Below are positions 1 to 44,915 of a stretch of DNA of 64,000 nt, in pieces. The notes beneath the pieces are model-generated. The model had not been told where the DNA came from. It did not search any database and saw only the letters and a program-made list of their open reading frames with translations. The first letter of the stretch is position 1. Each line of letters opens with the position of its first letter. Made by a program: the position numbers and the translations under genes. The stretch is from Lytechinus pictus (taxonomy: Eukaryota), in the NCBI RefSeq assembly GCF_037042905.1, contig NC_087250.1, positions 24,554,001 through 24,618,000 of the forward strand. The letters run 5' to 3'.

Positions 1-702
1 GAATTTAGTTTGTTTGGTTCATTATTATAAAGTAGACGCCCTCTCCCCCCCCCCCCCCCGCTGTTTTGTCATTACCACTTGGTAGTTGCGTTATGTGCTA
101 TCTACAAACCATTCCTATTTATTGGGGAGGGTGTGGTAGATGGGGTAGGGTGGAACTGGTGGGTCTATTTAAAGATTGATAGCTGAGATGTTGATGTATT
201 TCAGATTTTGTATAATAACATAATTCAATAATGATAACAATAATAGTTACATTTATGTAGCGCTTCATACGTTGGTTTCTAAGCATTTTACATATGTCAT
301 TATTATCACCCTGGTCATAGGATCCACCACTGTTCCACACACAAAGTGCACCATCTCCACTCTCTGTGAGCATCCTGGCCAGGCAACCATTTATCGGTTC
401 ACACATGCCAAGCTAATCGCATTGACGTTCACATCCTATCGCGTACCCATTTAACACCTGGGTCGAGAATTGCAAAGTGTGGATTGTATGTAGCTAGATA
501 GTTCTACTTGTGAAAATTTGAAGTTTCCACCCTTGGTAGACGTAGGTACTGCAATATCAAACAAATGTACAACATAATTAAAGTGAACAGTATTTTTTTT
601 TTCAATGCACATAAACATACAGACATTACAATCATCATTACTGTCAGTATTTTCTTTCACAGAGTTCGTTTATGATCAATCTGAATCTTATGCATCGTTG
701 CC

Positions 703-1389
703 TCACTTGCCACCATCTTCGGTATCATCTGTTTCTCCTTCACTGCTGTCTTCATCCTGGTATTGGAATAATCCCTCAAATTTTGTCTTATGTCTGGCTA
801 CTACACGGCGAATGGCTTTCCACTTCTTCATGCCATTTTCTACTTTCTTCATGATGTCAGAAAGGATTTCGTAATTGGTGTCATCATCTTCAAGGTACAA
901 GCTCTGTCGCAAGAAGTTAGAGTAGTGGTCAAAGAAGATTCGTTTAACAGCCCATAGAACTTTCACATGGGCTTTTTCTTTAGCATCATTATCACTCATA
1001 CCATTGGAGATATACTTTTTGTATTTTTCATTCCTCGACTCCTCAGTTGCTATCATGGCCATTTCTAACCATTCATGGTAAGCCTGGTTATCTTCAAGTT
1101 CTCCTGTCTCGTCCATCTCTGAATTCATTGATTCTTCCTCTCCTCCACTTTCCGAGTCCTCGGATGGTGCATTGCCGTCATGGATAGCCTCCGCAACTCG
1201 GTGCTTTTTAGATGGAGGTTCATACTGAGAATCATCTTCGCTATCCTCTTTTTCGTATTCAGTGTCTTCGTGGTCTTCCATTTTGGGGTGTACAATCTGT
1301 TCGTGCCTCTTGAGATCAAATTTTCGACCATATGATTTATTACACAGTGAACAACTGTAGCGCTTGGACATGAAACTATTCATGTTCAT
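703..1389 (-). CDS. Intronless C2H2 zinc-finger/acidic protein, left copy (Maverick/Polinton-like accessory ORF)
   Basis: CSLCNKSYGRKFDLKRHEQIVH finger, D/E-rich tract, NLS-like PPSKKHR, helical C-terminal domain. First in-frame ATG at 1389. Confidence 0.75.
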   Translation of the reverse strand: MNMNSFMSKRYSCSLCNKSYGRKFDLKRHEQIVHPKMEDHEDTEYEKEDSEDDSQYEPPSKKHRVAEAIHDGNAPSEDSESGGEEESMNSEMDETGELEDNQAYHEWLEMAMIATEESRNEKYKKYISNGMSDNDAKEKAHVKVLWAVKRIFFDHYSNFLRQSLYLEDDDTNYEILSDIMKKVENGMKKWKAIRRVVARHKTKFEGLFQYQDEDSSEGETDDTEDGGK

Positions 1390-1443
1390 TCGTTGAAGTT
1401 CCGTTTGCAAATGACACAGAGCAACTGAATCTTCATACTTGTA

Positions 1444-1675
1444 CACTCTAAATTACAGGGATTTAAAACAAGTCCACATGGACTGTAGTTAGGGACCAAT
1501 CGAATTCCGGATTTAGTTTGAATCCTTAAGATTCATTTTTAAATCTCGAAAGATTTAAATTTAAATCATTTGAGATATAAATTTAAGTCGTTAGGATTAA
1601 AACTAAATTCAGAAATCGATTGGTCCCTAGCTACAGTCCATCTGGACTTATTTTAAATCCCTGTAATTTAGAGTG
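1444..1675. mobile_element. Palindromic MITE (CACTC...GAGTG), TA target duplication
   Basis: Ungapped palindrome centred at 1559/1560 with about 16 mismatches per 120 bp. TA at 1442-1443 and 1676-1677; removing it restores pairing with the right arm. Confidence 0.85.
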
Positions 1676-1903
1676 TACAGATCGCATTGCCGCAAATAAA
1701 CATGGCGTTTACGCCGTAACGCCGTTGACGGCGCTCGGGATGCATTGATACGGCGTAAACGCCGTTTTTATTTGCGGCAATGCGATCTGTACGAGTCTGA
1801 AGATTCAGTTGCTCTTTGACGCCGTAGCAATGCATCCCGAGCGCCGTCAACGGCGTTACGGCGTAAACGCCGCTTTTATTTTTATTTGCGGCAATGCGAT
1901 CTG
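1676..1903. repeat. GC-rich branched hairpin at the palindrome axis, present in two inverted forms
   Basis: Stem tacagatcgcattgccgcaaataaa/tttatttgcggcaatgcgatctgta. Inner segment acgccgttgacggcgctcgggatgcattg (~1719-1747) recurs as its reverse complement (~1828-1856). Confidence 0.9.
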
Positions 1904-1957
1904 TACAAGTATGAAGATTCAGTTGCTCTGTGTCATTTGCAAACGGAACTTCAACGA

Positions 1958-2644
1958 ATGAACATGAATAGTTTCATGTCCAAGCGCTACAGTTGTTCAC
2001 TGTGTAATAAATCATATGGTCGAAAATTTGATCTCAAGAGGCACGAACAGATTGTACACCCCAAAATGGAAGACCACGAAGACACTGAATACGAAAAAGA
2101 GGATAGCGAAGATGATTCTCAGTATGAACCTCCATCTAAAAAGCACCGAGTTGCGGAGGCTATCCATGACGGCAATGCACCATCCGAGGACTCGGAAAGT
2201 GGAGGAGAGGAAGAATCAATGAATTCAGAGATGGACGAGACAGGAGAACTTGAAGATAACCAGGCTTACCATGAATGGTTAGAAATGGCCATGATAGCAA
2301 CTGAGGAGTCGAGGAATGAAAAATACAAAAAGTATATCTCCAATGGTATGAGTGATGATGATGCTAAAGAAAAAGCCCATGTGAAAGTTCTATGGGCTGT
2401 TAAACGAATCTTCTTTGACCACTACTCTAACTTCTTGCGACAGAGCTTGTACCTTGAAGATGATGACACCAATTACGAAATCCTTTCTGACATCATGAAG
2501 AAAGTAGAAAATGGCATGAAGAAGTGGAAAGCCATTCGCCGTGTAGTAGCCAGACATAAGACAAAATTTGAGGGATTATTCCAATACCAGGATGAAGACA
2601 GCAGTGAAGGAGAAACAGATGATACCGAAGATGGTGGCAAGTGA
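1958..2644 (+). CDS. Intronless C2H2 zinc-finger/acidic protein, right copy (Maverick/Polinton-like accessory ORF)
   Basis: Mirror of 703-1389. ATG at 1958 (alternatives 1964, 1976), TGA ends at 2644, TCAGTT Inr-like motif at 1919-1924. Family assignment is from recall, not from a search. Confidence 0.75.
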   Translation: MNMNSFMSKRYSCSLCNKSYGRKFDLKRHEQIVHPKMEDHEDTEYEKEDSEDDSQYEPPSKKHRVAEAIHDGNAPSEDSESGGEEESMNSEMDETGELEDNQAYHEWLEMAMIATEESRNEKYKKYISNGMSDDDAKEKAHVKVLWAVKRIFFDHYSNFLRQSLYLEDDDTNYEILSDIMKKVENGMKKWKAIRRVVARHKTKFEGLFQYQDEDSSEGETDDTEDGGK

Positions 2645-2859
2645 GGCAACGATGCATAAGATTCAGATTGATCATAAACGAACTCTGTGAAAGAAAATAC
2701 TGACAGTAATGATGATTGTAATGTCTGTATGTTTATGTGCATTGAAAAAAAAAATACTGTTCACTTTAATTATGTTGTACATTTGTTTGATATTGCAGTA
2801 CCTACGTCTACCAAGGGTGGAAACTTCAAATTTTCACAAGTAGAACTATCTAGCTACAT

Positions 2860-3095
2860 ACAATCCACACTTTGCAATTCTCGACCCAGGTGTTAAATGG
2901 GTACGCGATAGGATGTGAACGTCAATGCGATTAGCTTGGCATGTGTGAACCGATAAATGGTTGCCTGGCCAGGATGCTCACAGAGAGTGGAGATGGTGCA
3001 CTTTGTGTGTGGAACAGTGGTGGATCCTATGACCAGGGTGATAATAATGACATATGTAAAATGCTTAGAAACCAACGTATGAAGCGCTACATAAA
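2860..3095 (+). mobile_element. 5'-truncated SINE (mirror copy at ~252-487, minus strand)
   Basis: atccacactttgcaattctcgacccaggtg core matches the tRNA-headed element at ~32910-33165. Confidence 0.7.
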
Positions 3096-4158
3096 TGTAA
3101 CTATTATTGTTATCATTATTGAATTATGTTATTATACAAAATCTGAAATACATCAACATCTCAGCTATCAATCTTTAAATAGACCCACCAGTTCCACCCT
3201 ACCCCATCTACCACACCCTCCCCAATAAATAGGAATGGTTTGTAGATAGCACATAACGCAACTACCAAGTGGTAATGACAAAACAGCGGGGGGGGGGGGG
3301 GGAGAGGGCGTCTACTTTATAATAATGAACCAAACAAACTAAATTCAAATCTGAAGTATGAAACAATATGTAGATTATTTTATCGAATAAAATCAAGAAT
3401 AATATACCAGCAATTGAATTGAATCACTAATATAGAACAAGAATAAAAATGAAAAACAGGGAAAAAAACTGGTCTAAAAGTGAAAAGGAATGCATGCGCA
3501 TCATGCCCTTTATCACTGACATATATTCCACTCTAAAATCGTCAAACCAAATGACCAATCAGGTTCTATCTAATAAGGTGGGTGTGTCCAAAGAAATATC
3601 AGAATGTAATTCATTGATCATATTGTATATACTCAGACCTTCACAGACAAATACATGTCTGATTATCCTGCTCAAGGAAACCAAGTGGCTAATCCCCAGA
3701 TCCCCAGGTATATGGCTCAGTGACCCCCCCCCCTTGCTCCATGAATGATTTTAGAACAAAAGAATGTGCTTCCGGATAAAGGAAGACACTGGGAGGATGC
3801 ATCATTAACGAATATCCACATTCCTATTGTTTACAGGATGTCATCGGAATGATGTCTTATTAACGAAGATCCGCTTCCTTATTGTCACCGGAAGTCACAC
3901 TAATTAACCAATTTCCGCTTCCCTATTGTTTACCGGAAGAAGTAATTAACACCTTCAGTAGGGTATATTCTATGCTGCTTACGCCACTGATGAGGAGAAT
4001 TAGTCGATTGCTTCGAGATTGCATTATTCCCAAGAGGTTATCATTAATATTATTGAAGGGTATTCTAACACAACAGTACAGAAACTACAGCTCCCGTTCA
4101 CAGAATATTCTAGTAGGGCCTACTCTGGTAAGAAGTTAAACCAAATTGAACCCCCCCC

Positions 4159-4190
<32 letters not shown>

Positions 4191-4447
4191 CGCTCGTGCT
4201 TTGCGCTCCCATTGATATTACATTATATATTCATGGATTTTTTTTTTCAAGAACACATGAAAAAGTGGTCTTTGGTTTTTTTTAAATGTGATTATAAGAT
4301 AATTCAAAATCCATTTAAGGCACTTTAGTTAGGCTGGCCGGGAGGGAGTGGGCGCCATTTTTCGAAAAGTACACATATGGGCGCCAAAAATCAGGTCAAA
4401 TTTGCCCCCCCCCCTCTCCCTCCCCACGAAATCCTGGATCCGCGCCT

Positions 4448-5481: not shown

Positions 5482-5671
5482 CCGCGGGCTATCGGACCCG
5501 CGGTCTATCGGACCCGCGGACTATCGAACCCGCGGTCTATCGGACCCGCGGTCTATCGGACCCGCGGACTATCGGACCCGCGGTCTATCGGACCCGCGGT
5601 CTATCGGACCCGCGGACTATCGGACCCGCGGTCTATCGGACCCGCGGGCTATCGGACCCGCGGTCTATCGG
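5482..5671. repeat. 16-bp GC-rich minisatellite (ccgcggNctatcggac), about 12 copies
   Basis: Direct tandem units with no spacers; variation is mostly at one position. Confidence 0.95.
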
Positions 5672-5692
5672 GCTGTAACCGCTTACACGTAC

Positions 5693-7028
5693 CGCTTCGT
5701 TTCCAGGAAGGTCGTTATACATCTGAAGATTAACTACAAACTCTTGTCCTCTTTCAATCCTGTCTGGGATGTACAGTCAGTCCGCAAGCCCCTGTGTTAA
5801 TGAGCAAATGAGCAAGATTTATCCAAGTCCTCTCGTGGCTGAATTCATGTCCCTGCAAAATCTCGTGAATTGTGAGACTTTCTTTCTCAAAGAATTTAAC
5901 CACTTTTTTCTTGAGTAATATTGATTATTTTTGTACCATGGGCAAGAGTAAATGTTACTCTTTTATATTGCTCATTTCTTTTGAATGAAATATTTTGATA
6001 AATAAGTGAATTTTTTACCTGAAAAGATGCATCAAACAGAATTTTCTTCCTCTGTTTTCACTTGCAAATTGTGCAACATTTTGTGTTTTAGGCACCAACA
6101 TTATTTATATCATCAGAAAGCTCAAACTCTATACTTTCTTACAATGTCACTCTTGATATGTGGCATCTTTTAGATGGGTCAGCAGCCAGCTTTGTCCATC
6201 AAGATGCAAGACGAGATTTCTGAAATTTCTGAGTAACATAAAATCCAGAGTTCTGATTGGCTGAATACTGTTTTCAAAACAAACAGGCGCGGTTAATTTG
6301 AAGAGATTACCACATGGTGAGTGTGACCTTGCAGAGGCCCAGTGTGGGGAACATAGGAATTTGCGTGGGTGTGCTGTCTCTATGACCAATAAGAGCGCAG
6401 TATTCTTGTTTTTGAGCTGCAAAATGTACTTGGCCTATGAAAAGCTGGCTGCTGACCCATCTAAAATACATCTTCTTATAAAAATTATATCATATTAAAG
6501 CTTAGATCTTCAGCTTTATCATGATCTAAAAATAATTTGTGCCCAAACGGAAATTAAGTGTGAAAACAACAACTGTTGTTGCATGAAAAAAATATTTTGT
6601 TTCATTTTTTAGATCAAAATTTTTTTCCTATATTACAACATCCTTTTAAAAATCCAAACACATGACCTGAAAGAATGATTCTTCTTCTTTACAAAAATAC
6701 CAAAAACATGAAATTTTGTCAATATTTAGAGCAGCAATGGCCGAATAAAAAGAGGTGTTTTGGTTCGCACCAAGCTCATTAACTATGCAAAAACCCTCTA
6801 GTCATGAATATCACTTGGATAAAAGAAGCTACTTTTTCAGGGCTTGCGGACTGACTGTGTATGGAGTACACATAAGTTGCTGTCGGATCACATGTTGTTC
6901 AAGAGGAATCATAATCCACCACTCAGCACAGTAGCTGACGTACAGTTCAAGATGTTTCTTGTAGAGTCTGCAGTATGGTGGTTTCTCTGGTGAGCTGGAT
7001 GATTGCTTCCTTGAAGTTATTGGTAGAT
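5693..7028 (-). pseudogene. ZU5-end/UPA exon split by a DNA transposon
   Basis: Removing 5774-6857 and one TGTA gives ...QQLMCTPY-IPDRIERGQEFVVNLQMYNDLPGNEA|GT in one frame. Confidence 0.85.
5774..6857. mobile_element. Non-autonomous DNA transposon, 18-bp TIR, 4-bp TSD (TGTA)
   Basis: cagtcagtccgcaagccc (5774-5791) and gggcttgcggactgactg (6840-6857); tgta on both flanks. Confidence 0.92.
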
Positions 7029-7259
7029 CTTGTTTTACCAATCCCCAAAATAGAAAAGATCAATAAACATTGAATGAATTATATCAGGACTTTCGAGATC
7101 GTCAAAATGGTCAGACAAGGTTATATAAGAAACAATATCAGTAGACGCGGTAATGGTGTATGATTTGGGGTCCGACCACTTGACCGAAGGCCCTCGAGAC
7201 CGAAGACCCGCGAGACCGATTTTTTTTCCTTCATCAGGTGCCGAGTGGTTTGAGACGCC

Positions 7260-10120
7260 TCGTTGCAGCGGCGTATGCCTGTTATCAAGGGGGGGGGGGG
7301 GGCAGAGCCAAATATTTCCCGGTAACTCCGTCTAGAATTAGTGACATAACTATGATTTCAGTTTAGGGGCGGGAGTGAGCACGGGAAGCGCGCTCCCGGG
7401 ACGGGGGTGCAGTGAGTGGGAGTGTCCGGGGTAGAGACAACGGTAACTAAGTCCAGAAGGATTTCATTTTAGGGGGCGGTAGTGATCACGCGAAGTGGCG
7501 AAAAACTTAATACTGAGCGCGCGAAAGGCGCTCCCTATAACATGTATATTAAAGGTGGAGTTTTCCCCCTCCCACGCAAAGCACGGAAGCTCCGACGTTT
7601 TCTTCGGATTGTTCTTTGTCTGCTCCCGCTCCTTTTACATTCTCTGCCTGTTATCGGGGGGGGGGGGGGGGCGGGGCAAATAATTCCCGGTAACTAAATT
7701 TAGAATCAGTGGCTTTGCTAGGATTTCATTTAAGCATGTTTAAGGGGGCGGTGGTGAGCACGCAAATCGTGCGAAACACTTACTGCGCGCACGAAACGGC
7801 CCTCGATCTAGGGGGGGGGGGGGGAGGTGCAGGGAGGGAGAGTTTCCGCTACTTACAGTGTAAACTTATGTTGCTTAATTTCACTAACACTGCTTTAATA
7901 ACTTTACTCATTAAACGTTTATTTTTGTGGTAATTCTGCTTCATGATCTTGTGCATTTAATGTTTAACAAGAAAACTGGAAATATTATGGAAATACATGC
8001 ACTTGGAACATTGAACCTTCATTATCGGCAATCCTATCGTAGCATTTTTTTCTTATTTAAAAAGAAAATAGGAAGAACAAAAAGGTGAAAGTTCTAAAGA
8101 AAAGAACGTCCATTAATTTGTCACTCAAATATAAGTTTTCCTCCGGGAAGCCTGTCCTCGGGAGAATGGTCCTTCGGGGGAGTTTTCATTGGGGACTTGT
8201 CATGGGGGAGTCTCCCTCCGGAGGAGAAGTCCTTTCGGGGAGTTGTCCAAAACCAGTTTTTTATTGTTGTTGTTACTATACATTTTTGTTATCATGATAT
8301 CAGCAGTAGCATCAGTAGTACAATTAGAAGTCGTATAGTAGTAGTCGGAGTCGTAGTAGTCGTAGTCGTAGTAGTAGTATAGTGATAAACCTAATATTTG
8401 TTTCTATTGTCCTTATTATTCACCATTATTATCGTTATCATCATACGATTATTGATATTTTATTGATATTTTTAATGTATAGGGAGCGTGAAAGAGGAAG
8501 GACATGCACAAGATAGATAGGAAAGAGGAATAGAGAATGCAGATGAAGAAAAAATGGTAGATGAGGTAAATGATAATAACAATAGCCGTAAAATGATAGG
8601 AAAATAAATTAATAGAAGCGCCGTGTTCGCCTAAAGCATAGAGAAAAGACCTAGACAAAAATCACAAAGACAAAAGAAGCGAAATTATTTAGGAATGAGA
8701 TGTTAACATAATTAAAGAGAACAGAGAAGGAGAGAGGAGGGGGGGGGGGGGTCAGGAGGAACGATAGGAAAAATTGGTAAAAGAGCAGTGAGAAAAGTAA
8801 AGAGGAAAAAAAAATTGGCAGAATGTCAAATTTTTTGATGTGCTTTGTGTCTATCAGTGTGTGGGATTAGTGTCTGCGTTTCTTTGCAAATATATTTAGG
8901 ATATTTCTGAAAAACAAATCTTGAAATTTGCAACAGCCCACTTTGGATGCGGCGCCACTGTATTTTGGCTCATCAGTCTAATTGTTGTAACATTTTTTGG
9001 TTTCACCTCGGTTGTGCAGATTTCTTTAAAGACGATGGTATGATTTCGTTAGACGATGAAGTGAGAGAGGGGATGGGGTGTCCGATTTTGTAGTATTATT
9101 AAAAGCATTTTTGCAAACTATCCCCAGTCTAATAATACTCCGGCAGGAGCTGAAATATTATCTAAAAACAATGATATAAAAAAAAAGGAATCTATTAATG
9201 GATAGTTGAATGAACGAATAAATAAATAAATTAACAATTATATTTATAAATTGATTACACCCTCGTAGCAAAACGCCACCCCCAAGAAAAAAGGGGGAAA
9301 TGAGAGTGAGAAAATAAAAAGGTATAGGAGAACGTAAGACGAGCGAGAGCAATCAAGGAATAGTTCAAGGGATTGTCACAGCTTCTCCCTCCATGCACCC
9401 CTGGAACGCGTTTTGCGTGCTCAGTAGGGCCTAAGTGTTCGCCACTAATTTTAGAATTAGTTAACGGGAAATTTTTCGCTGTGCCCCTCCCCATTTCCGG
9501 CAGAAACGTAAGAGCGGATGCAGACAAGTAACGCTTCAAAGAAACGTCGGAGCTTCCGCAATTCGAAATCCCCCCCCCCCCCGTTAACAGGCAGAGAACG
9601 TAAGAACAGCAGCGGGCAAGGAACGATTCGAATAAAACGTCGGAGCTTCCGTGCTTCGCGGGAGGTCGGGGGGGGGGGGAAACTCCCCATATAATATGGA
9701 GCGCCAATTGCGCGCTCATTATTAAGTATTTCGCACACTTCGCGTGCTCACTACAGCCCCCTAAAGTTAAATCCTTGCAAAACAACTGATTCTGGACTTA
9801 GTTACCGGGAATTCCTTTGCTCTGTCCTCACCCCCCCCCCCTCCGATAACAGGCAGAGGACGTATTAAGATGAGCGAGAGCAGATAAAGAACAACTCAAA
9901 GGAACGTCGGACCTTCCGTGCTTCGTGCGGGGGGGGGGGGGGGTACACTCCACTCCCTGCACCCCCCCCCCCACCCCTGGAACCCGCTTCCCGTGCTCAC
10001 TACTGCCCCCTAAACTGAAATCCTAGTTATGTCTCTAATTCTAGATGGAATTACTGGAAAATATTTGGCTCTGCCCCCTCCCCACTCTGATAACAGGCAC
10101 CTGTTACGCCGCTGCAACGA
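7260..10120. mobile_element. Foldback-like element with long modular inverted arms
   Basis: tcgttgcagcggcgta... (7260 to ~7830) is inverted at ~9380-10120. gacgcc lies on both flanks; the interior is non-coding. Confidence 0.75.
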
Positions 10121-10209
10121 GACGCCGATGCAGGGGGGGGGTGCAGGAAAAAAATAAAATCATGTGTATAAAGTGTATGTGCATATTTTCTCATTCTCTA
10201 TGGAATTAC

Positions 10210-10551
10210 CTTTAATTGAGTCCCACATCCGACAAACGATGTCTGGTTTCACCTGCTCTGGATTGATGACAAAGGAACAGTGTGGTATAGTGATCCTAAC
10301 AGGTTGGTTGAAGATCACGGTTTGGGGCTCACACCTGATCCCACAGCAGGCCATTGATTCACTTACTAGGATATCAACACCGGGATTGTCTCTTATGGTG
10401 GTTAGTGTGATCTGACAAGAATCATCCTGGGGAACTGCTCCAGGAGGAATGTACATCGATATCCCATGGTCTTCTAGTTTGATTTCCTGACTGGTATTAC
10501 TTTTTACTTCTGCAGAAACCTCGGCAGAGATGAATGACCTATTAGTGATTT
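10210..10551 (-). CDS. ZU5-domain exon of the ankyrin gene
   Basis: LEDHGISMYIPPGAV...CGIRCEP...FNQPVRITIPHC; ttcag acceptor, GTAAT donor, phase 1-1. Confidence 0.85.
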
Positions 10552-11050
10552 CTGAAGATACAGGAAGTGAACAGTTAGACCAATGGTGTATACAATCCAT
10601 GACAAACGAAATACATTCATATATATATTATGAATGAATTAGAGCTCCACGACCCCGTTGCAGAAAAAGTTGCGATCAAACGCAACTCAAAAAATCTTGC
10701 GCAACTTGATTTCCAGCCAGTGAGGTACCCGTATTCAGGACTTGCGCACGATATTTTGACTCGCCTTTCAACGCAACTCTTTCTGCAACAGGCCCCGGAA
10801 GAGTAACACTTAAAATTACAGCAGTTTACATGGTTCATCTTTATCTTAATAGTACAGTCACCATTAGACTTACCCATGTGTTTGTCATCATCATCAAGTC
10901 ATCAAGTTATTATCATCTTTAATAAATATATGCATAAACTATATATCCTTTATTACTTCGTCTCCATTTAATATAATGCTGGTTGAAAGAAAAGATAAAC
11001 TAGATCCAACGCTAACATGGTGGAGAACCCTTTTTTCAACCAGCGAGATA

Positions 11051-11465
11051 GAGGCTGTTCTCACTACGTTCCTAAAACTAGTTTAGTGGAAACTAGTTTA
11101 ACGCGTAGTGAGAACGGTCGAAGAGGTCTTGGAAGCGATCTTCCAAACCAGTTTGGAAAACCAGCTCGCGATGTAGTTTTCAAGATCGCTTTGCCTCGTT
11201 AAGCTGGTTTTAGCGTAAGTGAGGACACAACCGTTCTTCGGGAAGCGATCTTCGCACATTTTGAGCGCGCTACTCCACACGACAGGTGTAGAATGCCTAT
11301 GCTGCGGTTTCGAATTTCGCTCGAAACGTGTCACCCACTGAGAGCGTTTCCATAGCAACAAGAGCGCTTTACGTGAAGTGATTTTGAAAACCACTTTCGT
11401 GTGATCAAGTGGGAACGCTAGCAAAGCGGTAAACTAGTTTTAGAAAGCGTAATGAGAACGGCCTC
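11051..11465. mobile_element. MITE
   Basis: TIRs gaggctgttctcactacgttcctaaaactagttt / aaactagttttagaaagcgtaatgagaacggcctc. Confidence 0.8.
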
Positions 11466-12794
11466 TATATACTAACTGTTGAACGTCACAAGGACAATCA
11501 TGCCATATGACGAGAGACGGAGAATTCCTCTCTGCAAGCAATTGATTTAACTCACTAATTAACTACCTCCTCGACATCGAACTTTTCTTCTGAACTGTCA
11601 TTGCGATGAACTGACACAACGGAAGTGACAGCATATACATAGCTGTAGGTCTCCCTCAAAGATGATGATTACGACAGTGACAATTAAACGAGATATGGAA
11701 ATAGACCAAGAAGAGAGACAGAAAGATGTACCGTCCAGACGGAAAAAAACAGATGGACGAATTAACAACAATCGCGAAACAACATCACCAACAACAAAGA
11801 CAACACATGGGGAATGTTTCATAAAAGGACTTGACGAACGTTTTATCCGACAAGCCCTGTTTTTCCGACAGTTACCATTGTAGCAGTGCTTCTCAGCCAA
11901 TCAAAATGAAGGAAATTTGTCAGATCTGACAACTTGTCGGACAATAATATTGATGAAACGCTCTCCAAATGGCACGATGGACATCGACAACGGTAGCGAC
12001 GACGACGACGATGAATAGACTGATGTAAACATGGACTTAACAGAGAGACTGCAAACAACTATTATGACTTCGACATGTTCAATAAACCTATAAAGCCAGG
12101 ATTGGATTAAACAGAAGAAAGACAATGACAGATTTATTGACTGTAAGACTGTGTTGAGACAGAGGACAATTTATATTTATATTTCTATTGATGTTTCATG
12201 CATGTCTGTTTAACATATTCCTTTTGCTTCTAAATTTAATTCTAATATTTGGGTGGCTCAGTGGCTCTGGTTTTAGTCAAACTGATTTTTGTACTCTTTT
12301 GTGAAAATGCGTGTACATGGTTTGATAGAAAACAAAAACATATGCTAAATTTATAATTTCACTTTACTTAGATATAACAAGTCGTATGAATTGATATCTT
12401 TTCCAGAATTTTATTAATTGACTTTTGTTATCATATTAGTATAAGAATGTAAAGCTGATAAATGAACCTATGTATATCCGTATGAATTAATTCTGTTGGT
12501 CTCATAGTTCATTTACAACTGGTTTTAGTATTGCTGATTTTTCATCTCATATATATAAGTGTTATAGTTAATGCGAAATTATCAAAAATATTCAGAGGGA
12601 ATATAAATCGAAATGTTGAATGGATGACAAGTGAGAAAAGCGTGAACTCCAATATGGAGAAGGTTTGAATGCATTGATAAAAATAATGCTAACATGCATA
12701 GCTTGAGATAATCATCTGATATGATTTATCTGTTTATGTTTCATTTGAATGACAATTCAGGAAAAAATACATTATGGTATTATCATAGTAGAGA

Positions 12795-12960
12795 GCGAAG
12801 TTGGCTCACTCGGTAAAGTGTCTGCCCGTCCAAAGATCTTGGGTTCGAGTCCAACCCCGGGCAGATGGCTGAAGCCAGTTTTGGTTAAAGAGTACACCGA
12901 TGTAATAGTAGGAACAATGGTCACTGGTGGCAGATAAAACTACCAAGCCTTTTTGGAAGG
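12795..12960 (+). mobile_element. tRNA-derived SINE-like sequence
   Basis: A-box-like tggctcactcgg and B-box ggttcgagtcc; no complete cloverleaf. Confidence 0.5.
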
Positions 12961-13061
12961 ATATCGTTTCCTTATAATTACGCTAATCGCAAGTTTTATG
13001 TGATTGATTATATGTGGCAGTTGGGTTAATAATTGATATGATGTTTAACAAATGTTCTTAC

Positions 13062-13096
13062 CTCTTGTAGACTTTACCTCATCCAATGAAGACAAC
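13062..13096 (-). CDS. 35-bp micro-exon linking the ankyrin and ZU5 regions
   Basis: ttgcag|GTTGTCTTCATTGGATGAGGTAAAGTCTACAAGAG|gtaag; phases 2 and 1 fit both neighbours. Confidence 0.7.
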
Positions 13097-13540
13097 CTGC
13101 AAGTAATCACAAACCACAACCACTCTGTATATACTTTTTTTTATTAGTGTATGCCAGCTTTCCTCATTTGTAATTTTGTTGTAAGGTAGGATGAATGTAA
13201 TCACACGTAAAGGATTTCACCGCAAAATGAAATGAACAAAATAAATGTGTATATCTCATGTGTTTCGAATGTGAAATAAAATGAAAAGTGATTTTTTCTT
13301 CTTATTTACACAACGACATATTCATTTGCACCCTATATGGTGCGGTGTGCACTTCCACCAAAAGAATACAATTCTGCTCCGACTAACTTCACATTAATAA
13401 TTCAGAAATCATCGACAATCATGAGGGTTGGTAATTTCAACCCTACCCTTTTCTTAGTTTGTGAACAACGTGGTCATTATTTTGTCCATAAAACGTTTTC
13501 ATGTAACGCCGTGTGATATAACAAAGGTTGAAACAATCAC

Positions 13541-13698
13541 CTTGACAATATCATCTGCCTGACTAGTTCATCCTTGGCATAGTGGATCGGTAGGTTGCCT
13601 GTCTCGTCCTTTACATCTAGCTTGGCACCATTCTCAATGAGATAAAACACCAACGATTCATTTGGAGATAACCTGCCATTGTAGTATTCGTGGGATAT
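13541..13698 (-). CDS. Terminal ankyrin exon
   Basis: ISHEYYNG...YLIENGAKLDVKDETGNLPIHYAKDELVRQMILS; canonical splice sites. Confidence 0.85.
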
Positions 13699-14211
13699 CT
13701 GAAACAGAGAACAGCTAACTTTCATAACACTTGAAAAGCACTTGCACAACCTGCTTTACATGGGAATTTTTTGTTTTAAAAATCAAATGATTACACTAGC
13801 CAATACGAATTAATTTGCAATATCCCCTACAATCACACAATCGGTTAGCTACATGAATATATTATAATAAGGTTAATATTCTGGGTCGTACGTCTAGACG
13901 CCCGTCGTTGTAATAAAATTAGAAAATGTGTCAAAGCATTTAATTTGTTCCATGGACATACATTTATTAACGATAACAAAGGGAGACTTTTCAGCAGAAT
14001 TATCTATCATTCTATGAGAATTTAATTCAAAGCTACATGGTGAGTTATCTCCTTTGATATCTGGATTTACGACTTATATTTTGATAGATGGATGCCCGAA
14101 ATCATTATGCTACTACGTATTCCAATCATTTATGATGTCTCCCAGAGCACTCATGAGTCCTATGAATATTGCTAACAACTACAGGAAACTCTTCCCCTTT
14201 AAATGGATCAC

Positions 14212-14394
14212 CTTTTTAAGTGTATCTGTGTTTTGAACTGTCATGTTGTTCCTGTGGCATAATTCGATGGCTTTATGAAGACAGGTCTGGCCGTCAGACG
14301 ACTGCGCATTGAGGTCACATCCACTGGATATCAACTTTTCGATGATAGCTGTATGGCCATGTATTATAGCAAGATGGATAGGTGTTGAATTGTC
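14212..14394 (-). CDS. Ankyrin exon
   Basis: DNSTPIHLAIIHGHTAIIEKLISSGCDLNAQSSDGQTCLHKA...; phase 0-0, canonical sites. Confidence 0.87.
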
Positions 14395-14823
14395 CTGGGT
14401 TGAAAGACATATAATCTCCGTATCAAGCAAAATATGTATAGATATATTTTTTAATTCTCGGGAAATACTTTTCACATCTTACTCCCTAAAGCCGCGACAT
14501 TGGATAGGCTTTAACATTGCGTTGAATGTGGATTTACAGTGCTCCTATTTTCAGTTTCCATGGCTCTTCTGATAATTTTAGGGGCTAAATAATCGTTCTG
14601 AGCCCCTGTGTAATTTGTATCTGCTACTTATCAAAATTAACATCTCTGTTTCAATGATATGGTGGATAAGCAATAATCTCCAAAATAATTGTAATGATTT
14701 GTACTGTACTTAAAAAATAGCGCCGTCCTTCGGTTATCGAATATGTACATTACAAATAGTCCTAAAATAAAACCGACAATTAAAGGAAATTAATGTACAG
14801 TTCATTCCAAGAAAATTACATAC

Positions 14824-17325
14824 CTTGGTATTAAACTTGTCTCGTCCTGCCTTATTCAGATCAGCTCCCTCACTGATCAGAAACTCGGTGGCATCAAGAT
14901 GACCATGAATAGCCGCAATGTGTAATGCAGTCGAACCAATATGATCTCCTTTATTCACCTCAGCTCCTTCGCCAATCAGGTATTTAGTAATATCAATATG
15001 ACCACTCTGTACAGCGGTGTGTAATACAGTCCGCCCATCATTATCTCCTGTATTCACCTCAGCTCCTTTACTAATCAGATATTTAGTGATGTCAAGATGA
15101 CCACTCTGTACAGCATTGTGTATTAGAGTCCAACCATCTTCTCTTTCTGTGCTTCCTTCGTTTCCTTGACCAATGAAGTAAGTAATGACATCAAGATGGC
15201 CCTTCTCTGCAGCAGTGTGACATACAATATCTACGTCAGCGCCTTTACTGATCAGATATTTGGCGATGTCATAGTGAAGACTTCTAGTAGCAATGTGTAA
15301 TGCAGTCAAGCCCCAATTATCTCTCTTATTCGCCTCAGCTCCTTTACTAATGCGGTATTTAAGGATGTCAAGATGGCCACCATCAGCAACAATGTGTAGT
15401 GCAGTCCAACCATCATTATCTTTTTGATTAACATCTGCATCATGACTGATCAGATATTTTATGAGGTCAGTATGACCGTTCCCAGTAGCACTGTGTAATG
15501 CAGTCCGGCCATTTTTATCCTTCTTGTTGACCTCAGCTCCTTGGTTGATAAGATATTTGATGACGCTTATATCGCCATTCTCGGCACTAGAGTCAATAGC
15601 ACTGTGTAATGCAGTCCTACCATCATTATCCTCCATTCTGACCTCAGCTCTTTGACTGATCAGATATTTTGTGAGGTCAGTATGACCGTTCCAAGTAGCA
15701 CTGTGTAATGCAGTCCTGCCATTGTTATCCTTCTTGTTGATCTCAGCTCCTTGTTTGATAAGATATTTGGTGACGCTAATATGACCATTGTTGGCAGCAA
15801 TGTGTAATGCAGTCGAACCACAATTATCTTTCTTATTCACCTCAACTCCATGCCCAATCGAGTATTCAGTTTTATCAAGATGACCATTCTGCTCAGCGCT
15901 GTATAATAGAGCCTCGCCATCTTCTGTTGTTGTGTTCACTTCAGCTTCTTCAGTAATGACGTCAATTAGACATTTTAAGGCATCTAGATGTCCATTTTTA
16001 GCTACAAAGTGTAGTGCTGTCCAGCCACCATTGTCTCTTTTATTCACCTCAGCTCCTTGACGAATCAGATATTCAGTGATACGAAGTTGACCATTTTCTA
16101 CAGCACTGTGTAATAGAGTCCAACCATCTTCTCTTGCTGAGTTCACTTTGGTTCCTTTACTAATGAAGTAACCAATGACATCAAGATGGCCCTTCTCTGC
16201 AGCAGTGTGACATACAGTATCAACTTCGGCTCCTTTTTTGATCAGATAGATGATTCCGTCGGTTTTTCTTGATCCCCAAAACAAACTTCGATATGAACGA
16301 TACGAACGATATGAACGATATGAAAGATATGAACGATATGAACGATTTGGCATGTATGTTTGATAGCGGAATACAGCACTGTGTAATGCAGTCATACCAT
16401 TTTTATCCTCCTTATTAACATCAGCTCCTTGGTCGATCAGATACTCGATGACATCAATGTGTTGATCAACCCGCTCATACATGTCAAAAAAGGATGCTCT
16501 ATCACCATGATTTATACTTACAGCACTGTGTAATGCAGTCTCCCCATTTTTATCTTCCTTATTGACCTCAGCTTCTTTACTGATCAGATATTTGGTGATG
16601 TGAAAATGGCCATTCCAAGCGGCAATGTGCAATGCAGTCCTACCATCATTATTCTCCTTATTGACCACAGCTCCTTGACTGATCAGATATTGTACTACGT
16701 CAATATGATCATTCTTACATGTAGCAGCATTGTGTAATGCAGTACAACCACCTTTATTCTCCTTATTGACTTCAGCTCCTTGACTGATCAGATGTATGGC
16801 GACGTAAAAATGGCCTTTCATAGCAGCCTTGTGTAATGCAGTCTCCCCATTTTTATCCTTCTTATTGACCTCAGCTCCTTGACTGATCAGATATACGGTG
16901 ATGTCAATATGACCATTCCAAGCAGCATTGTGTAATGCAGTACTACCATCGTTATTCTGCTTATTGACCTCAGTGCCCTGGCTGATTAGATATTTAGTGA
17001 TGTCAGTATGGCCATACTCAGCAGCAATGGAAAATGCAGTGCCACCAGCTTTATCCTTTTTATTGACCTCAGCTCCTTCACTGATTAGATATTCGGTGAC
17101 GCCAATATGGCCATTCCTTGCAGCATTGTGTAATGCAGTCTTACCATCATTATTCTCCCTATTGACCTCGGCTCCTTTACTGATTAGATATTCGGTGATG
17201 TTAAAATGGCCATTCCCTGCAGCCTTGTGTAATGCAGTCCTACCACAATCATCTCCTTTATTTAACTTCTCTCCCCGACTGATTTGATATTTGACATCTT
17301 CAAGAAAATTATTCGCTGCTGCATC
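14824..17325 (-). CDS. Large exon with more than 20 tandem ankyrin repeats
   Basis: Repeated G.TALH.AA.NGH.DITKYLISQGAEVN. The frame stays open 504 nt upstream of the tracked ATG (16821); donor aag|GTATGT at 14823. Confidence 0.93.
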
Positions 17326-20300
17326 TTATAATCCATGTCTGTTTCCCATTTTGATTTAAATGAGTTGTGTTTTTTTTTTTTAACTATAACTTTAACTACT
17401 TGAGAATTCCCTCACAAGCAGCATTATTTAGCTCCAATTTTGATCCATTTGCCCATATGTATTTCATCGTTTCTCAAATCCTGACTATAGCTCGATAAAA
17501 GATATCAGAAAGTTACAATCACAGGCCACAGAGTGATGTCTATATTCATCCTTTCAGCGTACCTATTTGAAATGATCTTATCTCGTTTCGATTGAATATC
17601 ATCATATCGTGTACGCGGCAAAATGTTTATCAAATTATTACCGGTAATGAAATAGCAGTAGTTCCCTAAGATTTGAACTTTGGACTCATGTATGTAGCAC
17701 ATATGAATTCTTTACTTCGTGGATTTTTTTTTAGACCATTGTTAATCTCATTCCCATTTTGTATAATTTAAAGCAGAAACCGGTCAGAAAAGCAACGACG
17801 CCAAATAAATTGACCTGCAGAAGACGGCGTTAAAATTCGATGACCAAATAACAATGGAGCATTTGTGCAATGTTTGACCAACGTTGCGATTTTTTTCTTC
17901 AGAACCTAGCCACGTTGGAGCATCGTACTCGCAAGCATCGTCAGTCCAACAATGCTGAAAGTACTAATAAAACTTTGCGGGCATCAAAGTCTGGCAACGC
18001 AAGTCCAAGGTTGGCTGTAACATGTGAAATGTCAAGTATAACGTCCCCGAAACGTCTCTAAGATGCGCATACATCGTCATTCCGGCGATGTGAACATTAG
18101 TAGTTCGACGTTTTTACAGCATTGCTCCGACGATGCTACAGCGTTTCTTCGACGTTGTCTGGCTAGATATTTTTCCTTCAACGTCATATCGGCGTTTGAA
18201 AAGACGATAATTGGTTTTAAGGTGAATGTACCCTACCCCGTATTGAAATTTCCCAAGAATCCTACTTTTTTACATCTAGATCTATGTACTGAAATATGCC
18301 ATTGACTTATTTATAATCCTGTACCATAGGTATAGTTAGGAGTGCATGCCAATATATGATATAGTTTTTAATATTTCTTCGCATTCTGATGTAGAAAATA
18401 CCATCTAACATTACATGGTTGGAGACGGCATGGTAATCGAGCTACGTATTTTTGCAGTAATTCTTAGTGAGTAGTTGAATTATTGCGTAAACATAAATAT
18501 GTTAATTATTATATCAATATTTCCTCAGAATGTGTTCATTGCATGTGTCAAGATCCAGTTATACAAATGTTTGCCCAACGTTGGTTCAACGTTACGAACA
18601 TTGCAGTATCAACATTACGTGTTTTTTTTTTTACATCAACCATGGTAGGGTCCATGCATCAACCAAGCAACTGGTATACCAGATTCCTACATTATATCAT
18701 CGTCAGGTGTCCATCAACTTCCCAACCTAACAGTTTTGAACATTGTCAACAACGTATATCCGCAACGGTTGTCCAAATTAAACCAGTATCCAACGTTGTA
18801 CACTCAATCATGACAAGGTCAGCTTTTCTAATCAACGTCGTATTATCGTGGCTTTTCAAACAGCCCTCCTACGTGTCGAACATAATATATGTTTCCAACG
18901 TTGATCTATCATTGAAACAAGCGTTGTCTTCAACGTCCAATGAGCTTTGTGTTTGCAATATTGATTCGACTTTGCGTGGCTTTCTAACCGGTAGATAATA
19001 AAATATAAAAACAATCCTTGAAACAAAAAATAATGGTCGGGGTTTTGATTTTGGGTATACGAAACATTAAAAGGAACTAAACGAGACTATGCCTTGATCA
19101 CGAGATATTTTTTATTATCTATTGTTCCATTTTATAGTTTTATTGAGCTATATAGTGTTGATAGAATCAATATAAATGAGAATATAAAGCTTAGAATATC
19201 ATATAAAACTTTCGTTAATTGCTACTCAACCTAAAACTGACAGCATTGTTAACTGACTTTAACGATCGAAGAAACCATAAAAAATCTGCAAACATGAATA
19301 TAAACTTCATAGATATAATCCTCGTCACAGTTACTTTTATGATATTAGTCCGTATACAGCTTTATTACATTTCACATAAATTTCACAAAGGCAAAGAATA
19401 TAAACTTTAACGTGATACACATCGGGATATATACATTGTTACAATATTTTTTAATGTTGGTTAAACTCAATAGGTAGAAACCAAAAAGAAAAGTCACTCT
19501 TTTGGATTGCCAAACCTCAAATAAAAGTATACAATATATGAGTTTATGTTAATCTTCAGAGACTATTGTTACATAAAGACAGTCAATCTTGAATTCAGGT
19601 GGACCCGTAGTTGAGATTATTTAAAGTTCTTAAAAAATGCTTCAAGTCTTGACATTTCTATTTGGCATGTTTGGTGTGTTTTTTTTATGAGAGTACAGTC
19701 CAAGATGACACGTTTTTAAGTGCATGATCAAGCCATTTGATCTCAAGCAGCATATTGTTCAAAGTAAAAAAAAATTGAAAGCGGAAATATTAATACCACT
19801 ATTAATAATTTAACGATTCAGCAGTGTCGGAGCAGTTCCAGGTTTGAGGGGGCAAATTCTTGAAGGAGGTCTTGGGCGAGGGCGCAAAGCTGTGCCCCCC
19901 CCCCCCGGATCCACCAATGTTAAGATATCTTAGCTTAAGGACGTTCCACAGTTATGTTTGTGCGCATCATGATCTGCGCATATTTTACACTCCTGCGCGC
20001 TGACGTCACAATGGATGAACTGATGCACGAATGTGTGGAAGCTACGAATCCCCCCCACAATCTTAATTAAACAATTAGTAGCGTTCTTTCACCAACAGGA
20101 GGAGGATATTCAATATTTTCATCCACATTTTCCCCAATAGACCACTGAAAGATTGTTTAATTAAAATCGTAGGGGGGGGGGGCTTGATGCCGGTGCAGTG
20201 CTAACTAAAAACTGATGTATTAAGGATCAGGTGCGGATCCAGGATTTTCCAAAAGGGGGCACATTTTCTTGAGGAAAATTTGAAAAGCAAAAAAAAGGGA

Positions 20301-20860
20301 GGCCTTCACTTTCAAAAGGGAGACACACTTGTGTTTAAACGTCCGTTTTACATTACACATTTTAATTGTGCCTTTCAAGGGGGGCACTGGCCGGCTGTGC
20401 CCCCCCCCCCCCCCCGATCCACCAATGTTAGGATATCTTAGCTTAAGGCATCTCATAATGCCTCAATGAATAATGCGAACGCGCAAAGCCGAGCTCAAAT
20501 TTTTGGACATTTCATTTATTCGCACCTGAAAATTTGACTTTGTGAGCGTTTCTTTATGTAATCATGAACGATATGGGTATATTATAACTATATTAAACAA
20601 TAATGCAAGCTTTAAACGCAAGCAGAAGTTTATGCTGGCATGACAAGGAACTGTTAAAGACAGTATCCAGTGATTCAATGAGAAGATGCGAATCTCGCCA
20701 ATAAAAAATATAAACGCGAACTGATTTTTTTTATATTCATTTTTTTTTAAGTCTTGAACCTCCGTATCTCGCTAAAAGAAAAAAATATGAAAACTCGACT
20801 CATCAGCAGAAAAAATTGTGCACATTGAATTGAGAATGGGATATCAAAAGCCCCATGAAT

Positions 20861-22520
20861 ACCATGGTCACATTTGCTCTACGGCGGCCGTAGATACCTG
20901 AATTCGAGATGTTTCTGCGGCAGCCGCAGGGTCGACGTACGGCGGATTCCTATTATTTACAGGCCGTAGGGGTGGCCGTAGAAAAATAGCGCGGAGTTAT
21001 ACAATTTTTTTCATTTCTACGCCCGCCGTAGAAATTAGACTAGCCGTAGCAATGGCGTAGAACGGTGCACGGTCACCGTACGTCGAGCGTACGGTGGCCG
21101 TGCAGCTGCCCTGGTGTCTATATTACAACTATATTTTGCAGCCCTCAAAATTATTGCACCTTCAGTGGAGTGGGTTTGTAGGATTTTCTCTTACTCAGTA
21201 ATCTAGATTGTATACAGAGGTGGGCGCTAATGCAGTTTCGCTCTGATTGGTCAAAAAGACGGCTGTATTTCAGCTTTGAACTCGATGTCGTTGTTCGAAT
21301 CCTCGGACATATATCACTTCGCGGATCGCTTGGATTCGCCGTGCGCCGTAATATTGATATGGACTGAAGTTATGCGACCAAAAGATTCGCCTGCAGCATG
21401 CTGGCAGTTTGTTCGCCACATGTTCGCATGATTTGGTTGCTAACTTCAGTCCATATCAACATTACGGCGCACGGCGAATCCAAGCGATCCGCGAAGTGAT
21501 GTCTGAGGATTCGAACAACGACATCGAGATCAAAGCTGAAATACAGCCGTTCCCGATCGCGATATTTGGAAAAGAGGTGGGTATATTGACCTCGAAATTT
21601 ATTTTTGCTTGAGCCCAAATTATTTTTATATCATGATAATGCTAAATATGTATGCTTTGAAATGATATATGTTTCAAAATAAGAATTGGTTTAATCGGGT
21701 CAAGATCACACTTTTCATTTGCCAAGTACATAAAGCAGCTTGAAAACAAGAATACTGCACTCTGATTGGTCAAAAAGACCACACAATGGCAAATTCCAAC
21801 GGTTCCAGTGCCTGGGTTCGTGGGAAGTAAACACTTCCCTTGTGGTAATCTCCTCAAATACCCCGCGCCTGTTGTTCTTTGAACCTTATCCAGCCAATCA
21901 GAACTCTGGATTTCATGCAAGTATAAATTTCAGAAATCTCGTCTTGTACCTTGGTGGGAAAAGTGTGATCTTGACCCGATTAAAAGGTGCCGCATATCAA
22001 GAGTGGCATTGTGAGAAAGTACAGATGTTCAGCTTTATGGTGATATAGATATAATTGAGGCTCAAAATAAAAAGTTTTGCACAATTTGCAAAAGAAAACA
22101 GAGGAAGAAAATTCAGTTTTTAGGCACATTTTCAGGCCAGAAATTTACTTATTTAACAAAATATTGTATACAAAGTAAATGACCAATATGAAAGAGTAAC
22201 TTTTACTCTATCTGATCGTGTAATAATATTTCATTTAACTTGAGGTTAAAACAGGTAAATTCTTAGAGAAAGAAAATCTCACGAATCACGAGATTTTGCA
22301 AGGAGGAGGATTCAGCCACGAGATGATTTGGATGAATCTGGCCTTTTTGCTCATTAGCATAGGGACCTGCGGTCTGACTGGATTGCAGCCCGTATAGTTG
22401 AGGAGCAGCGGCAGGCCCGACAGCAGAGAAGATGTTGCGACGTGTCACGCTCGGCCACTGCGACAACCTGATGCAGGAGCTGATCATGCGTGAATCAAGG
22501 GGTGATTTTAAAAACTTTTT
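20861..22520 (+). mobile_element. Rearranged PIF/Harbinger-like remnant
   Basis: Begins ccatggtcacatttg followed by (ct)acggc/gccgtag repeats. 22381-22520 encodes fragments IAARIVEEQRQARQQRR and NLMQELIMRESRGDFKNFF, resembling a Harbinger transposase N-terminus. Confidence 0.45.
21600..22380 (-). mobile_element. Diverged partial copy of the 5774-6857 transposon family
   Basis: The reverse complement of 22255-22380 (cagtcagaccgcaggtccctatgctaatgagc...) aligns by eye to 5774-5900, and similarity continues inward. Confidence 0.8.
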
Positions 22521-43700: not shown

Positions 43701-44915
43701 TTTTGGTGTTTGGCCTGATTACTGAGTATTTTTTCTTATATCGGTCAAATTTCAACACCAGGGGGAGGCACTGTATACTAATTATGTCAAGAAAATCGGG
43801 ACAGGGGAACCCAACTTTCCAAAGTCTCCTGGTTTGGAAGTCCGGCTGGATGTCTTCCGGCAGGTTCCCCTTCCAAGAATTCACGTTCTGGTCTTGAAGC
43901 CTCTCCCCCAATTTTATTTCACACATGAGATAATCTTGTATTGAATAGATGATAAATGTAAAGAGGGGAATCCGCACCCCAGGAAATACCTGTCCTGGGA
44001 TCCCGTTGGATCTCTTCCTTCTGGGAGGTCACGTGACCCGGTTTCCCCCTTAAAATCTGGTTGATTGTGGCTTGATGAATATTGTTTAGAAACTGTGTAC
44101 TTGTTAAAATATTGTAAATGTCGTTTTAATGATTCTGGTAAAATCCCCCAGAGGCAATAAAGTTGAGAAACGGCAATTTCATGTTCGATCTGTATTTATT
44201 CTCGCAAATAACATTTTTGTTTGAATATCTCATTATTTATAAATAATCATTATTTATAAACGATTTTTACAGTTTGCCATTATATACAAATAATCGTTAT
44301 TTATATACAAATAACCATCATTTATAAATAATGTAATTATTTACAAATAGAATGTAAATTATATATAAATAATAGTTATTATTTAATGAATAATGATTAT
44401 GTAACAAATAATTGTTCTATATAATATTGGTACAATCCGCGCCTCATACGTAACGTGGGATCTAACTCAGCTCGACTCACGTTAGCTTGCTCCATGCTAC
44501 CGATGCACGTCGTGTCCGACCGCGGCCGGGTCCGGCCGCCTTGGGGCCATTGCATGCAGGCATGTCCGCATATGGGAATGATACGATGTAATATCGATGT
44601 GGCAGATATGGCATGTTCCGACTCGGAGTCCTCGTATAAGACACAGTAGAAGTCCGGATCTATTCTAAGTTAGTTGAGCCACATGGCTGATTTGCTTGTT
44701 AGTTATGTTAAAACAGTAGTCGAGTACATCTTATTTAAGGCACTTGCCGGCTTAAAACGAAACTCGAATTTCAATTTCATTTTATTTTCCCAGCGTATTT
44801 GTCCCATTGAAGACACCGTTAGAAAAAAAAATCGCACCGAAATGAAAAAAAATCGCCAAAAATCAAAAACGCGTGTGATTACCAACGCGACGCGAGTGAT
44901 TACGAACGCGAGTGA
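40795..44915. mobile_element. ~4.1-kb non-coding foldback element with ~570-bp inverted arms
   Basis: ~40795-41366 is the reverse complement of ~44350-44915. The interior has ttatttataaataa arrays, a GC-rich block and three ttggttgg-rich direct repeats (~42440-43700). Confidence 0.85.

Follow-up and report, generated by a model that had tools for sequence, protein, structure and literature searches.

A palindromic one-gene element in a sea urchin genome, probably a snap-back derivative of a Polinton end

Introduction

Polintons, also named Mavericks, are the described elements closest to the one reported here, and their commonest end, according to the part of PMC8097293 that covers termini, is 5'-(AGT)2//(ACT)2-3' with 6-bp duplications. 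The replication and control of Polintons in animals rest mostly on a model. We analyzed a stretch of 64,000 nucleotides (nt) from the sea urchin Lytechinus pictus (NCBI RefSeq assembly GCF_037042905.1, contig NC_087250.1, positions 24,554,001 to 24,618,000, forward strand), which is called the window throughout. The first part of the window is occupied by a large palindrome that carries a zinc-finger (ZnF) gene in each arm and a strong hairpin, B1, at its axis. This element is probably a non-autonomous, almost wholly palindromic snap-back derivative of a Polinton/Maverick end, ∼4.6 kb long including an inserted miniature inverted-repeat transposable element (MITE) and present in multiple copies, with the hairpin as the centre of the fold-back.

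Hairpin or palindromic deletion derivatives of a protein-primed linear plasmid, F1 and F2 of Kluyveromyces pGKL1, were reportedly described by Kikuchi in 1985, and hairpin and duplex forms of Neurospora kalilo are said to go back to Vierula and Bertrand in 1992. A terminal segment of a protein-primed replicon is mirrored in these derivatives and maintained by a helper polymerase, much as proposed here; they are extrachromosomal, whereas the window element is integrated in several copies and retains a putative DNA-binding gene. The rolling-hairpin ends of parvoviruses and the telomeres of poxviruses are similar in that a palindrome axis holds a branched, imperfect hairpin whose core is asymmetric. 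Unlike these, the window element has no Rep/NS1 or resolvase, and its putative origin motif lies at the far ends. Snap-back defective viral genomes, which the relevant part of PMC6140465 describes for RNA viruses, resemble the element in that a switch onto the nascent strand yields a hairpin genome that carries one end twice. The terminal palindromes of protist virophages (10.64898/2026.07.28.741278) are arranged differently.

Shared with Polintons, as portrayed in the pertinent parts of PMC8097293 and PMC6431247, are an (ACT)2-type 3' end (in relatives of the element), putative terminal inverted repeats and an accessory open reading frame (ORF) near the end. A helical protein domain is also common to the ZnF family and A32-like ATPase fusions. 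In contrast to an autonomous Polinton, the visible arm contains no gene for protein-primed DNA polymerase B (pPolB), integrase, capsid or ATPase, and inverted repeats predicted at ∼2.2 kb would account for almost all of the element, compared with 46-1447 bp (mean 402) in intact vertebrate elements. A 20 kb Polinton-1 insertion upstream of gh1 in Chinook salmon, with a 10-kb palindromic sequence, is likewise Polinton-related and largely palindromic; it is mentioned in passing in PMC2584663, and that passage describes no mechanism, family, ZnF gene or repeat array. The literature we surveyed offered no description of a palindromic Polinton family with a single ZnF gene, nor of co-variation between finger and repeats, and Repbase or Dfam may catalogue such elements.

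Results and Discussion

The hairpin at the palindrome axis

The hairpin at 1676-1791 was 116 nt long with a TA at each end. Its DNA folding energy was -55.1 kcal/mol (z -14.2) and was equalled by none of 200 shuffled sequences, which confirmed the ∼115-bp hairpin noticed in an earlier reading of the window from its letters and ORFs (the sequence-only reading). The arms at 1675-1718 and 1749-1792 were 95% complementary over 44 nt, with perfect terminal arms of 26 nt. The two inner stems named in that reading were found in place, GGCGTTTACGCC at 1704-1715 and CGCCGTTGACGGCG at 1720-1733, but in the best structure only CGCCGTTGACGGCG gave rise to a side branch. Because GGCGTTTACGCC was paired to a partner inside the main stem, B1 has the shape of a long stem from which a single side hairpin branches, and not of a symmetric T or Y.

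The hairpin was followed at 1792-1815 by a 24-nt copy, with 2 differences, of 1906-1929 upstream of the ZnF gene, in agreement with the ∼25 bp of copied sequence reported earlier. This copy belonged to a longer direct repeat of ∼1757-1815 with 1865-1929. Further on, 1828-1871 was the exact 44-nt reverse complement of 1704-1747. The inverted core of the second partial hairpin in the sequence-only reading is thus present, but the second copy (the B2 region) on its own formed only a weak hairpin (z -2.0 and -1.3). Instead it paired with 1676-1759 and continued the large palindrome, the true loop of which is 1760-1815. The 'flop' copy is therefore a product of mirror symmetry and not a second isoform, and the two flip/flop forms postulated earlier reduce to one hairpin and the mirror arm of a larger structure.

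The outer arms of the large palindrome (1-1445 and 1902-3346) showed a single mismatch in 1445 positions (990/2357). The inner arms, ∼87 nt beyond MITE A (see below), differed by 3 substitutions and a 6-nt indel and were far less alike. The left arm is predicted to extend 633 nt beyond the window start if the right arm is mirrored to its end. No further copy of hairpin B was present elsewhere in the window, and the 23-nt end of B had no match in the viral and metagenome contigs searched. An Rfam search returned 10 matches, all of them under the gathering score and to generic miRNA-precursor hairpins.

Sequence identity between the arms

Contigs from four public runs (X3, X5, X10 and X12) were compared with positions 1400-4300 of the window; the matches listed comprised 32 of 4776 pieces, 40 of 223 variant rows, 24 of 746 loose ends and 15 of 26 joints. 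Over 944 letters, the family contig X5 record 28 showed 26 differences from the window. In 11 of the 40 variant rows, which lay in the mirrored arm, the X3, X5 and X10 contigs all differed from the window, and both window arms kept the window's letter. Since these private letters are common to both arms, the arms were copied from each other after the split from the sister copies. The presence of window-private letters in both arms also shows that the two arms derive from one end, as in a snap-back product.

Polinton-type ends and relatives

The right arm is proposed to end ∼1.3 kb past the ZnF gene, at 3979, with an imperfect terminal motif (Table 1). This was the only match in the 64 kb to a composite end motif (P about 0.017, for a motif defined after four ends had been viewed). 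X12 record 16 started exactly at 3980 with a different 122-nt upstream sequence, so that a contig break matches the boundary 3979/3980, and contig depth remained in the hundreds as far as ∼position 4000.

Nine relative loci (L001-L009) were retrieved, all from one public assembly, of which L001, L006, L007 and L008 form one family and L002 and L009 another. An exact TACTACT was located downstream of the gene in three of eight loci (L001, L006 and L009, representing two families), with a chance of 0.03-0.08 each. Exactly at this motif, L001 and L006 went from 35/45 identical positions to 12/45. Six loci had more than 300 nt upstream of the gene. In three of them an inverted copy started at contig base 1, exact over 34 nt (L001), 94 nt (L003) and 76 nt (L007), while L002, L005 and L009 had no inverted start. 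Inverted contig starts of this kind are what an assembler would leave of a longer palindrome. L001 had both the inversion and the end motif, ∼2 kb apart; the corresponding distance in the window is 2.2 kb. A reverse transcriptase (RT)-like fragment at 598-1053 of L008 started a few bases past the ZnF stop codon and cut the arm of that copy.

Neither pPolB nor a DDE integrase was encoded by the 13 window ORFs of at least 120 amino acids (aa), and between the axis and the end the ZnF frame was the only ORF. Capsid and packaging ATPase genes were absent from the visible arm; an ATPase-like fusion occurred only in distant homologues of the ZnF protein.

Copy number, MITE A and the second insert

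Next to the hairpin, and sharing the TA at 1676-1677 with it, was a 236-nt imperfect palindrome at 1442-1677 (element A) that the sequence-only reading had not mentioned. Element A had a TA on both sides in the left arm and there was a single TA at the matching place of the right arm, which is therefore the empty site. With this target duplication, a summed contig depth of 20,730-59,338 (X3 and X5) and no coding capacity, element A is a high-copy TA MITE. It fits the TA-flanked palindromic MITEs beginning CACT(C/G)TAAA both in its TA duplication against an empty site and in its very high copy number; hairpin B is unlike these, being low-copy and tied to the ZnF promoter.

Contig depth is a rough guide and not a copy number, and drop-out of hairpins from libraries may lower it over B. 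The bins over B1 had depths of 85 and 119 and those over the scar and B2 500 and 1327. The main contigs of the ZnF gene reached 207 (X3) and 680 (X5), and contigs of single repeat copies 23-75. Because depth over B was similar to that over the gene and lay 20- to 500-fold below that over MITE A, B is not a dispersed MITE. As a rough guide, the ZnF gene belongs to a family at ∼5 to 25 times the single-copy level.

In X12, a run that carries the label of another organism, record 11 matched 1788-2021 across all its 229 letters with 6 other letters and 7 gap letters, and X10 record 3 covered 1812-2890. Since the former spans and the latter reaches the junction between scar and B2, this junction is a trait of the family. 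Among the matches listed for the four runs, none bridged the left-arm/A or the A/B1 junction. A second, high-copy insert, at 2862-3135, is called SINE-like (short interspersed nuclear element) by its look, not by a database match. As multi-copy family contigs (X5 records 28 and 30) enter this insert, it is older than the spread of the family.

The ZnF protein family

The ZnF protein of 228 aa contained a single C2H2 finger, with R/D/R at helix positions -1/3/6, followed by an acidic stretch and by a conserved helical domain of ∼115 aa. Pfam matches to the finger were weak and under the cut-off, and NCBIfam and PHROGs gave no match above cut-off. The structure model had a mean pLDDT (predicted local distance difference test) of 73.7, with the helical domain modelled with high confidence. 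A fold search in BFVD returned no match at E ≤0.001, and the best match in the PDB had a Z of 5.9 (root-mean-square deviation 4.4, 84 aligned residues). As nothing in the PDB reached Z 8, this resemblance reflects a common helical arrangement only. The homodimer prediction scored 0.00, a result that bears neither for nor against a dimer.

Single-sequence searching yielded 21 homologues and profile searching 137, and the helical domain was detected in 213 of 295 proteins. The R/x/R helix residues were found in 120 of 125 family members, both arginines being near-invariant; R-T-R and R-S-R variants accounted for 8 and 6 of the 125. The helical domain also occurred at the C-terminus of ATPase-like proteins (independent E-values 4.7e-11 for P0135, 9.2e-16 for P0168 and 8.1e-16 for P0130), of which P0135 had a sub-threshold match to Pox_A32 (E 0.00029; 20.8 bits against a Pfam cut-off of 22.8). 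Pox_A32 is the packaging ATPase type of Polintons. Relatives of the ZnF protein were absent from the viral contigs and prokaryote genomes searched, a protein atlas search with it gave no usable match, and a search for longer fusions, made at 981-2800 aa only, retrieved three unrelated zinc-finger homeobox proteins. The family is an unannotated one of more than 200 proteins. Some are mis-named: the close homologues P0292-P0294 were automatically named 'U3 small nucleolar RNA-associated protein 25-like', apparently a wrong annotation prompted by the acidic stretch. In P0205 and P0206 the helical domain was duplicated in tandem behind one finger, and the P0205 cluster had 36 members.

Match between finger and repeats

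In the C2H2 recognition code, as summarized in the part of PMC12264921 concerned, Arg reads G, Asn reads A and Asp reads C, so that an R-D-R finger is predicted to bind GCG and an R-N-R finger GAG. Upstream of the gene, GCG exceeded GAG at the R-D-R loci (window 19 vs 4, rank 2 of 32; L003 20 vs 0, rank 6; L005 14 vs 3, rank 1), and GAG exceeded GCG at the R-N-R loci (L001 39 vs 2, L007 59 vs 6, L002 28 vs 0, L009 19 vs 3; all rank 1), these counts being inflated by duplication of the repeats themselves. The predicted triplet thus matched the repeats in all seven scorable loci, from five lineages that are related to each other; L004, L006 and L008 were left out, having no upstream DNA. Repeat arrays were located at the same place in 6/6 relatives with long upstream sequence, and their central base followed the finger. 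On the best tree of 48 proteins the D/N label changed 5 times (bootstrap 4-6), with 2 changes forced by well-supported branches. From this match, the ZnF protein most likely binds the central repeats and acts as a regulator of its own divergent promoters, perhaps also of those of a helper. The match names a candidate regulator together with its candidate site.

Origin of the palindrome

We propose that each arm consists of a Polinton-type end, ∼1.3 kb of non-coding DNA, the outward-facing ZnF gene together with its promoter, and an array of GGCGT units in a hairpin. The origins would be situated at the outer ends, where priming would take place, and the hairpin would act as the fold-back site. 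When a parent Polinton was copied by strand displacement, the nascent strand may have folded back in hairpin B and primed itself, giving the order end-ZnF-B-ZnF-end. The sequence suggests that a second switch then occurred 24 nt past B, at a microhomology of ∼3 nt, and left the order B1-scar-B2. With two ends and no enzymes of its own, the product would have spread to several copies, a step for which the data give partial evidence, through the polymerase and integrase of a helper, and each displaced strand may have snapped back and rebuilt a duplex origin. The arms of the window copy were made alike after its split from the sister copies, as the private letters record, and MITE A landed at the TA of the left arm afterwards, as the empty site records. 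The hairpin-ended molecule of the sequence-only reading would correspond to the folded single strand. Two of its suggestions gain support from these data, namely that the hairpin belongs to a mobile element carrying the ZnF gene and that repeated template switching produced the layout.

A natural palindromic derivative of ∼4 kb would mark the cis-acting parts of a Polinton, namely the ends, the subterminal repeats and the hairpin. As the expected product of fold-back by a strand-displacing polymerase, it would support the protein-primed model and would parallel the hairpin plasmids and snap-back defective genomes. It is conceivable, although doubtful, that such elements are widespread hairpin satellites of animal Polintons, that is, ∼4-kb one-gene mirror-image replicons whose finger co-evolves with the axis repeats and whose helical domain copies the C-terminus of the helper's packaging ATPase, the protein marking satellite DNA for the helper machinery or repressing the helper. 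If true, they would be analogous to phage satellites that redirect or silence phages.

Several observations weigh against a mobile, Polinton-derived snap-back element. The nine loci come from one assembly and several are of the same family; 5/8 loci lack the end motif and 3/6 the inversion, on short contigs; the window end motif is imperfect and its composite was defined post hoc; the left end and the target duplication fall outside the window; and no full-length Polinton or helper with the ZnF subfamily was found in the viral contigs or prokaryote genomes searched. A duplicated cluster of host ankyrin-ZU5 genes could also raise the contig depth, well-supported branches require no more than two of the D/N changes, a single finger alone binds weakly, and the Pox_A32 match of P0135, below the Pfam cut-off, is weak. 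Moreover, the inner arms diverged more than the outer arms, so that chromosomal gene conversion fits as well as copy-back and is a live alternative. Such conversion would keep the arms alike if the palindrome were an accident of this locus, in which a fork or break in a single-armed Polinton remnant folded at B and left a local inverted duplication of breakage-fusion or template-switch type. Fold-back at long hairpins is well known, the left end lies beyond the window, and the greater divergence of the inner arms beyond the MITE looks as if conversion stopped at the 236-nt insert. We nevertheless regard such an accident as unlikely, because the scar-B2 junction, which lies whole within X12 record 11 and up to which X10 record 3 extends, is not private to the locus and inverted starts recur in two other families.

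Less likely still is the parvovirus- or poxvirus-type terminus raised by the sequence-only reading, with B as a covalently closed end or self-priming origin and the locus as a head-to-head replication dimer that has integrated and bears flip/flop ends. A strong branched hairpin does lie at the axis, contigs of relatives begin in an inversion, a strand of the palindrome that has snapped back to half its length would carry a closed hairpin end, and terminal palindromes are proposed as primers in protist virophages and polinton-like viruses in the pertinent part of 10.64898/2026.07.28.741278. Against this, no HUH/SF3 Rep (NS1) or resolvase was encoded by the 13 window ORFs of at least 120 aa, mirror symmetry alone accounts for the inverted core, the putative outer ends are of the protein-primed Polinton type, and L001 and L007, although of one family, have the axis at different places, as a fixed resolution site would not. 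Among the 15 of 26 joints compared, none was an opposite-strand joint within B, in contigs that resolve isoforms poorly. It is also very unlikely that B is an independent small TA-flanked MITE inserted in the promoter, with repeats that are host bZIP/CRE-like sites and match the finger by chance. Its TA at both ends and perfect terminal arms would suit such an insertion, and TGAGTCA, TGCGTCA and TTACGCA resemble AP-1/CRE/C-EBP half-sites, so that host bZIP sites are an alternative reading of the repeats; its gene-like depth of 85-1327, the lack of another copy in 64 kb and the finger-following arrays of the relatives argue otherwise. An assembly artefact from fold-back reads would explain the near-perfect arms and the missing contigs at the left-arm/A and A/B1 junctions among the matches listed. 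It is the most improbable of these explanations, as MITE A with its TA duplication is present in one arm only, one substitution separates the arms, the scar junction was found in independent short-read contigs and the window lies inside a chromosome-scale piece.

Features of the element

Table 1. Positions of the palindromic element and its parts in the window
Feature	Position	Strand	Remarks
Left outer arm, cut by window start	1..1441	-	mirrors 1902-3346
ZnF gene, left copy (228 aa, open)	703..1389	-	ORF
Element A, AT-rich palindromic MITE, 236 nt	1442..1677		86% self-complementary; left arm only, between outer arm and B1
B1, 116-nt hairpin with five GGCGT units	1676..1791		immediately upstream of promoter region; proposed first fold-back site and candidate ZnF binding array
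True loop of the large palindrome, 56 nt	1760..1815		B1 right arm and 24-nt copy 1792-1815; scar of the proposed second template switch
B2, inner end of right arm	1816..1905	+	reverse complement of 1676-1759; 3 substitutions, one 6-nt indel
Putative promoter/leader of ZnF gene	1906..1957	+	TCATT motif at similar distance from start codon in relatives (upstream 95-mers)
ZnF gene, right copy	1958..2644	+	points outwards, towards element end
SINE-like insert with (ATT)-rich tail, in arm	2862..3135	+	mirrored at 212-485; depth 2.5e5, loose ends 2861/2862
Subterminal short repeats	3804..3937	+	3804-3838 similar to 3903-3937
Proposed right end (GGGTA... motif)	3961..3979	+	imperfect match to Polinton (ACT)2 end, two letters differ
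Predicted 6-bp target-site duplication, TACGCC	3980..3985	+	from the 6-bp rule in the part of PMC8097293 on ends; partner would fall outside window

Genomic setting

The window is sea urchin nuclear DNA. Its minus strand carries ankyrin-repeat and ZU5 exons, and the window also contains a long interspersed nuclear element (LINE). The palindromic element lies just downstream of, or within an intron of, an ankyrin-ZU5 immune-type gene. An ankyrin-repeat exon (99-bp period) and two ZU5 exons were identified at 5640-17300 and 46084-46485 on the minus strand, with probable further exons near 5690-5770 and 6880-7020. Nested inverted-repeat arms (76-80%), ∼16 kb apart, surround the ankyrin exon (5774-22380), and a 16-bp unit with a CCGCGG core is repeated 11.9 times in tandem at 5482-5671. 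The LINE at 47941-51814, also on the minus strand, has an endonuclease/RT ORF of 851 aa and an upstream ORF1-like frame of 233 aa. A further inverted-repeat pair at 40980-44736 has 435-nt arms (95%) around a 2.9-kb interior with 23-bp repeats. At 59795-64000, a tandem array with a 1162-bp period, in which four copies were 100% identical over the 300 nt compared, runs off the window end.
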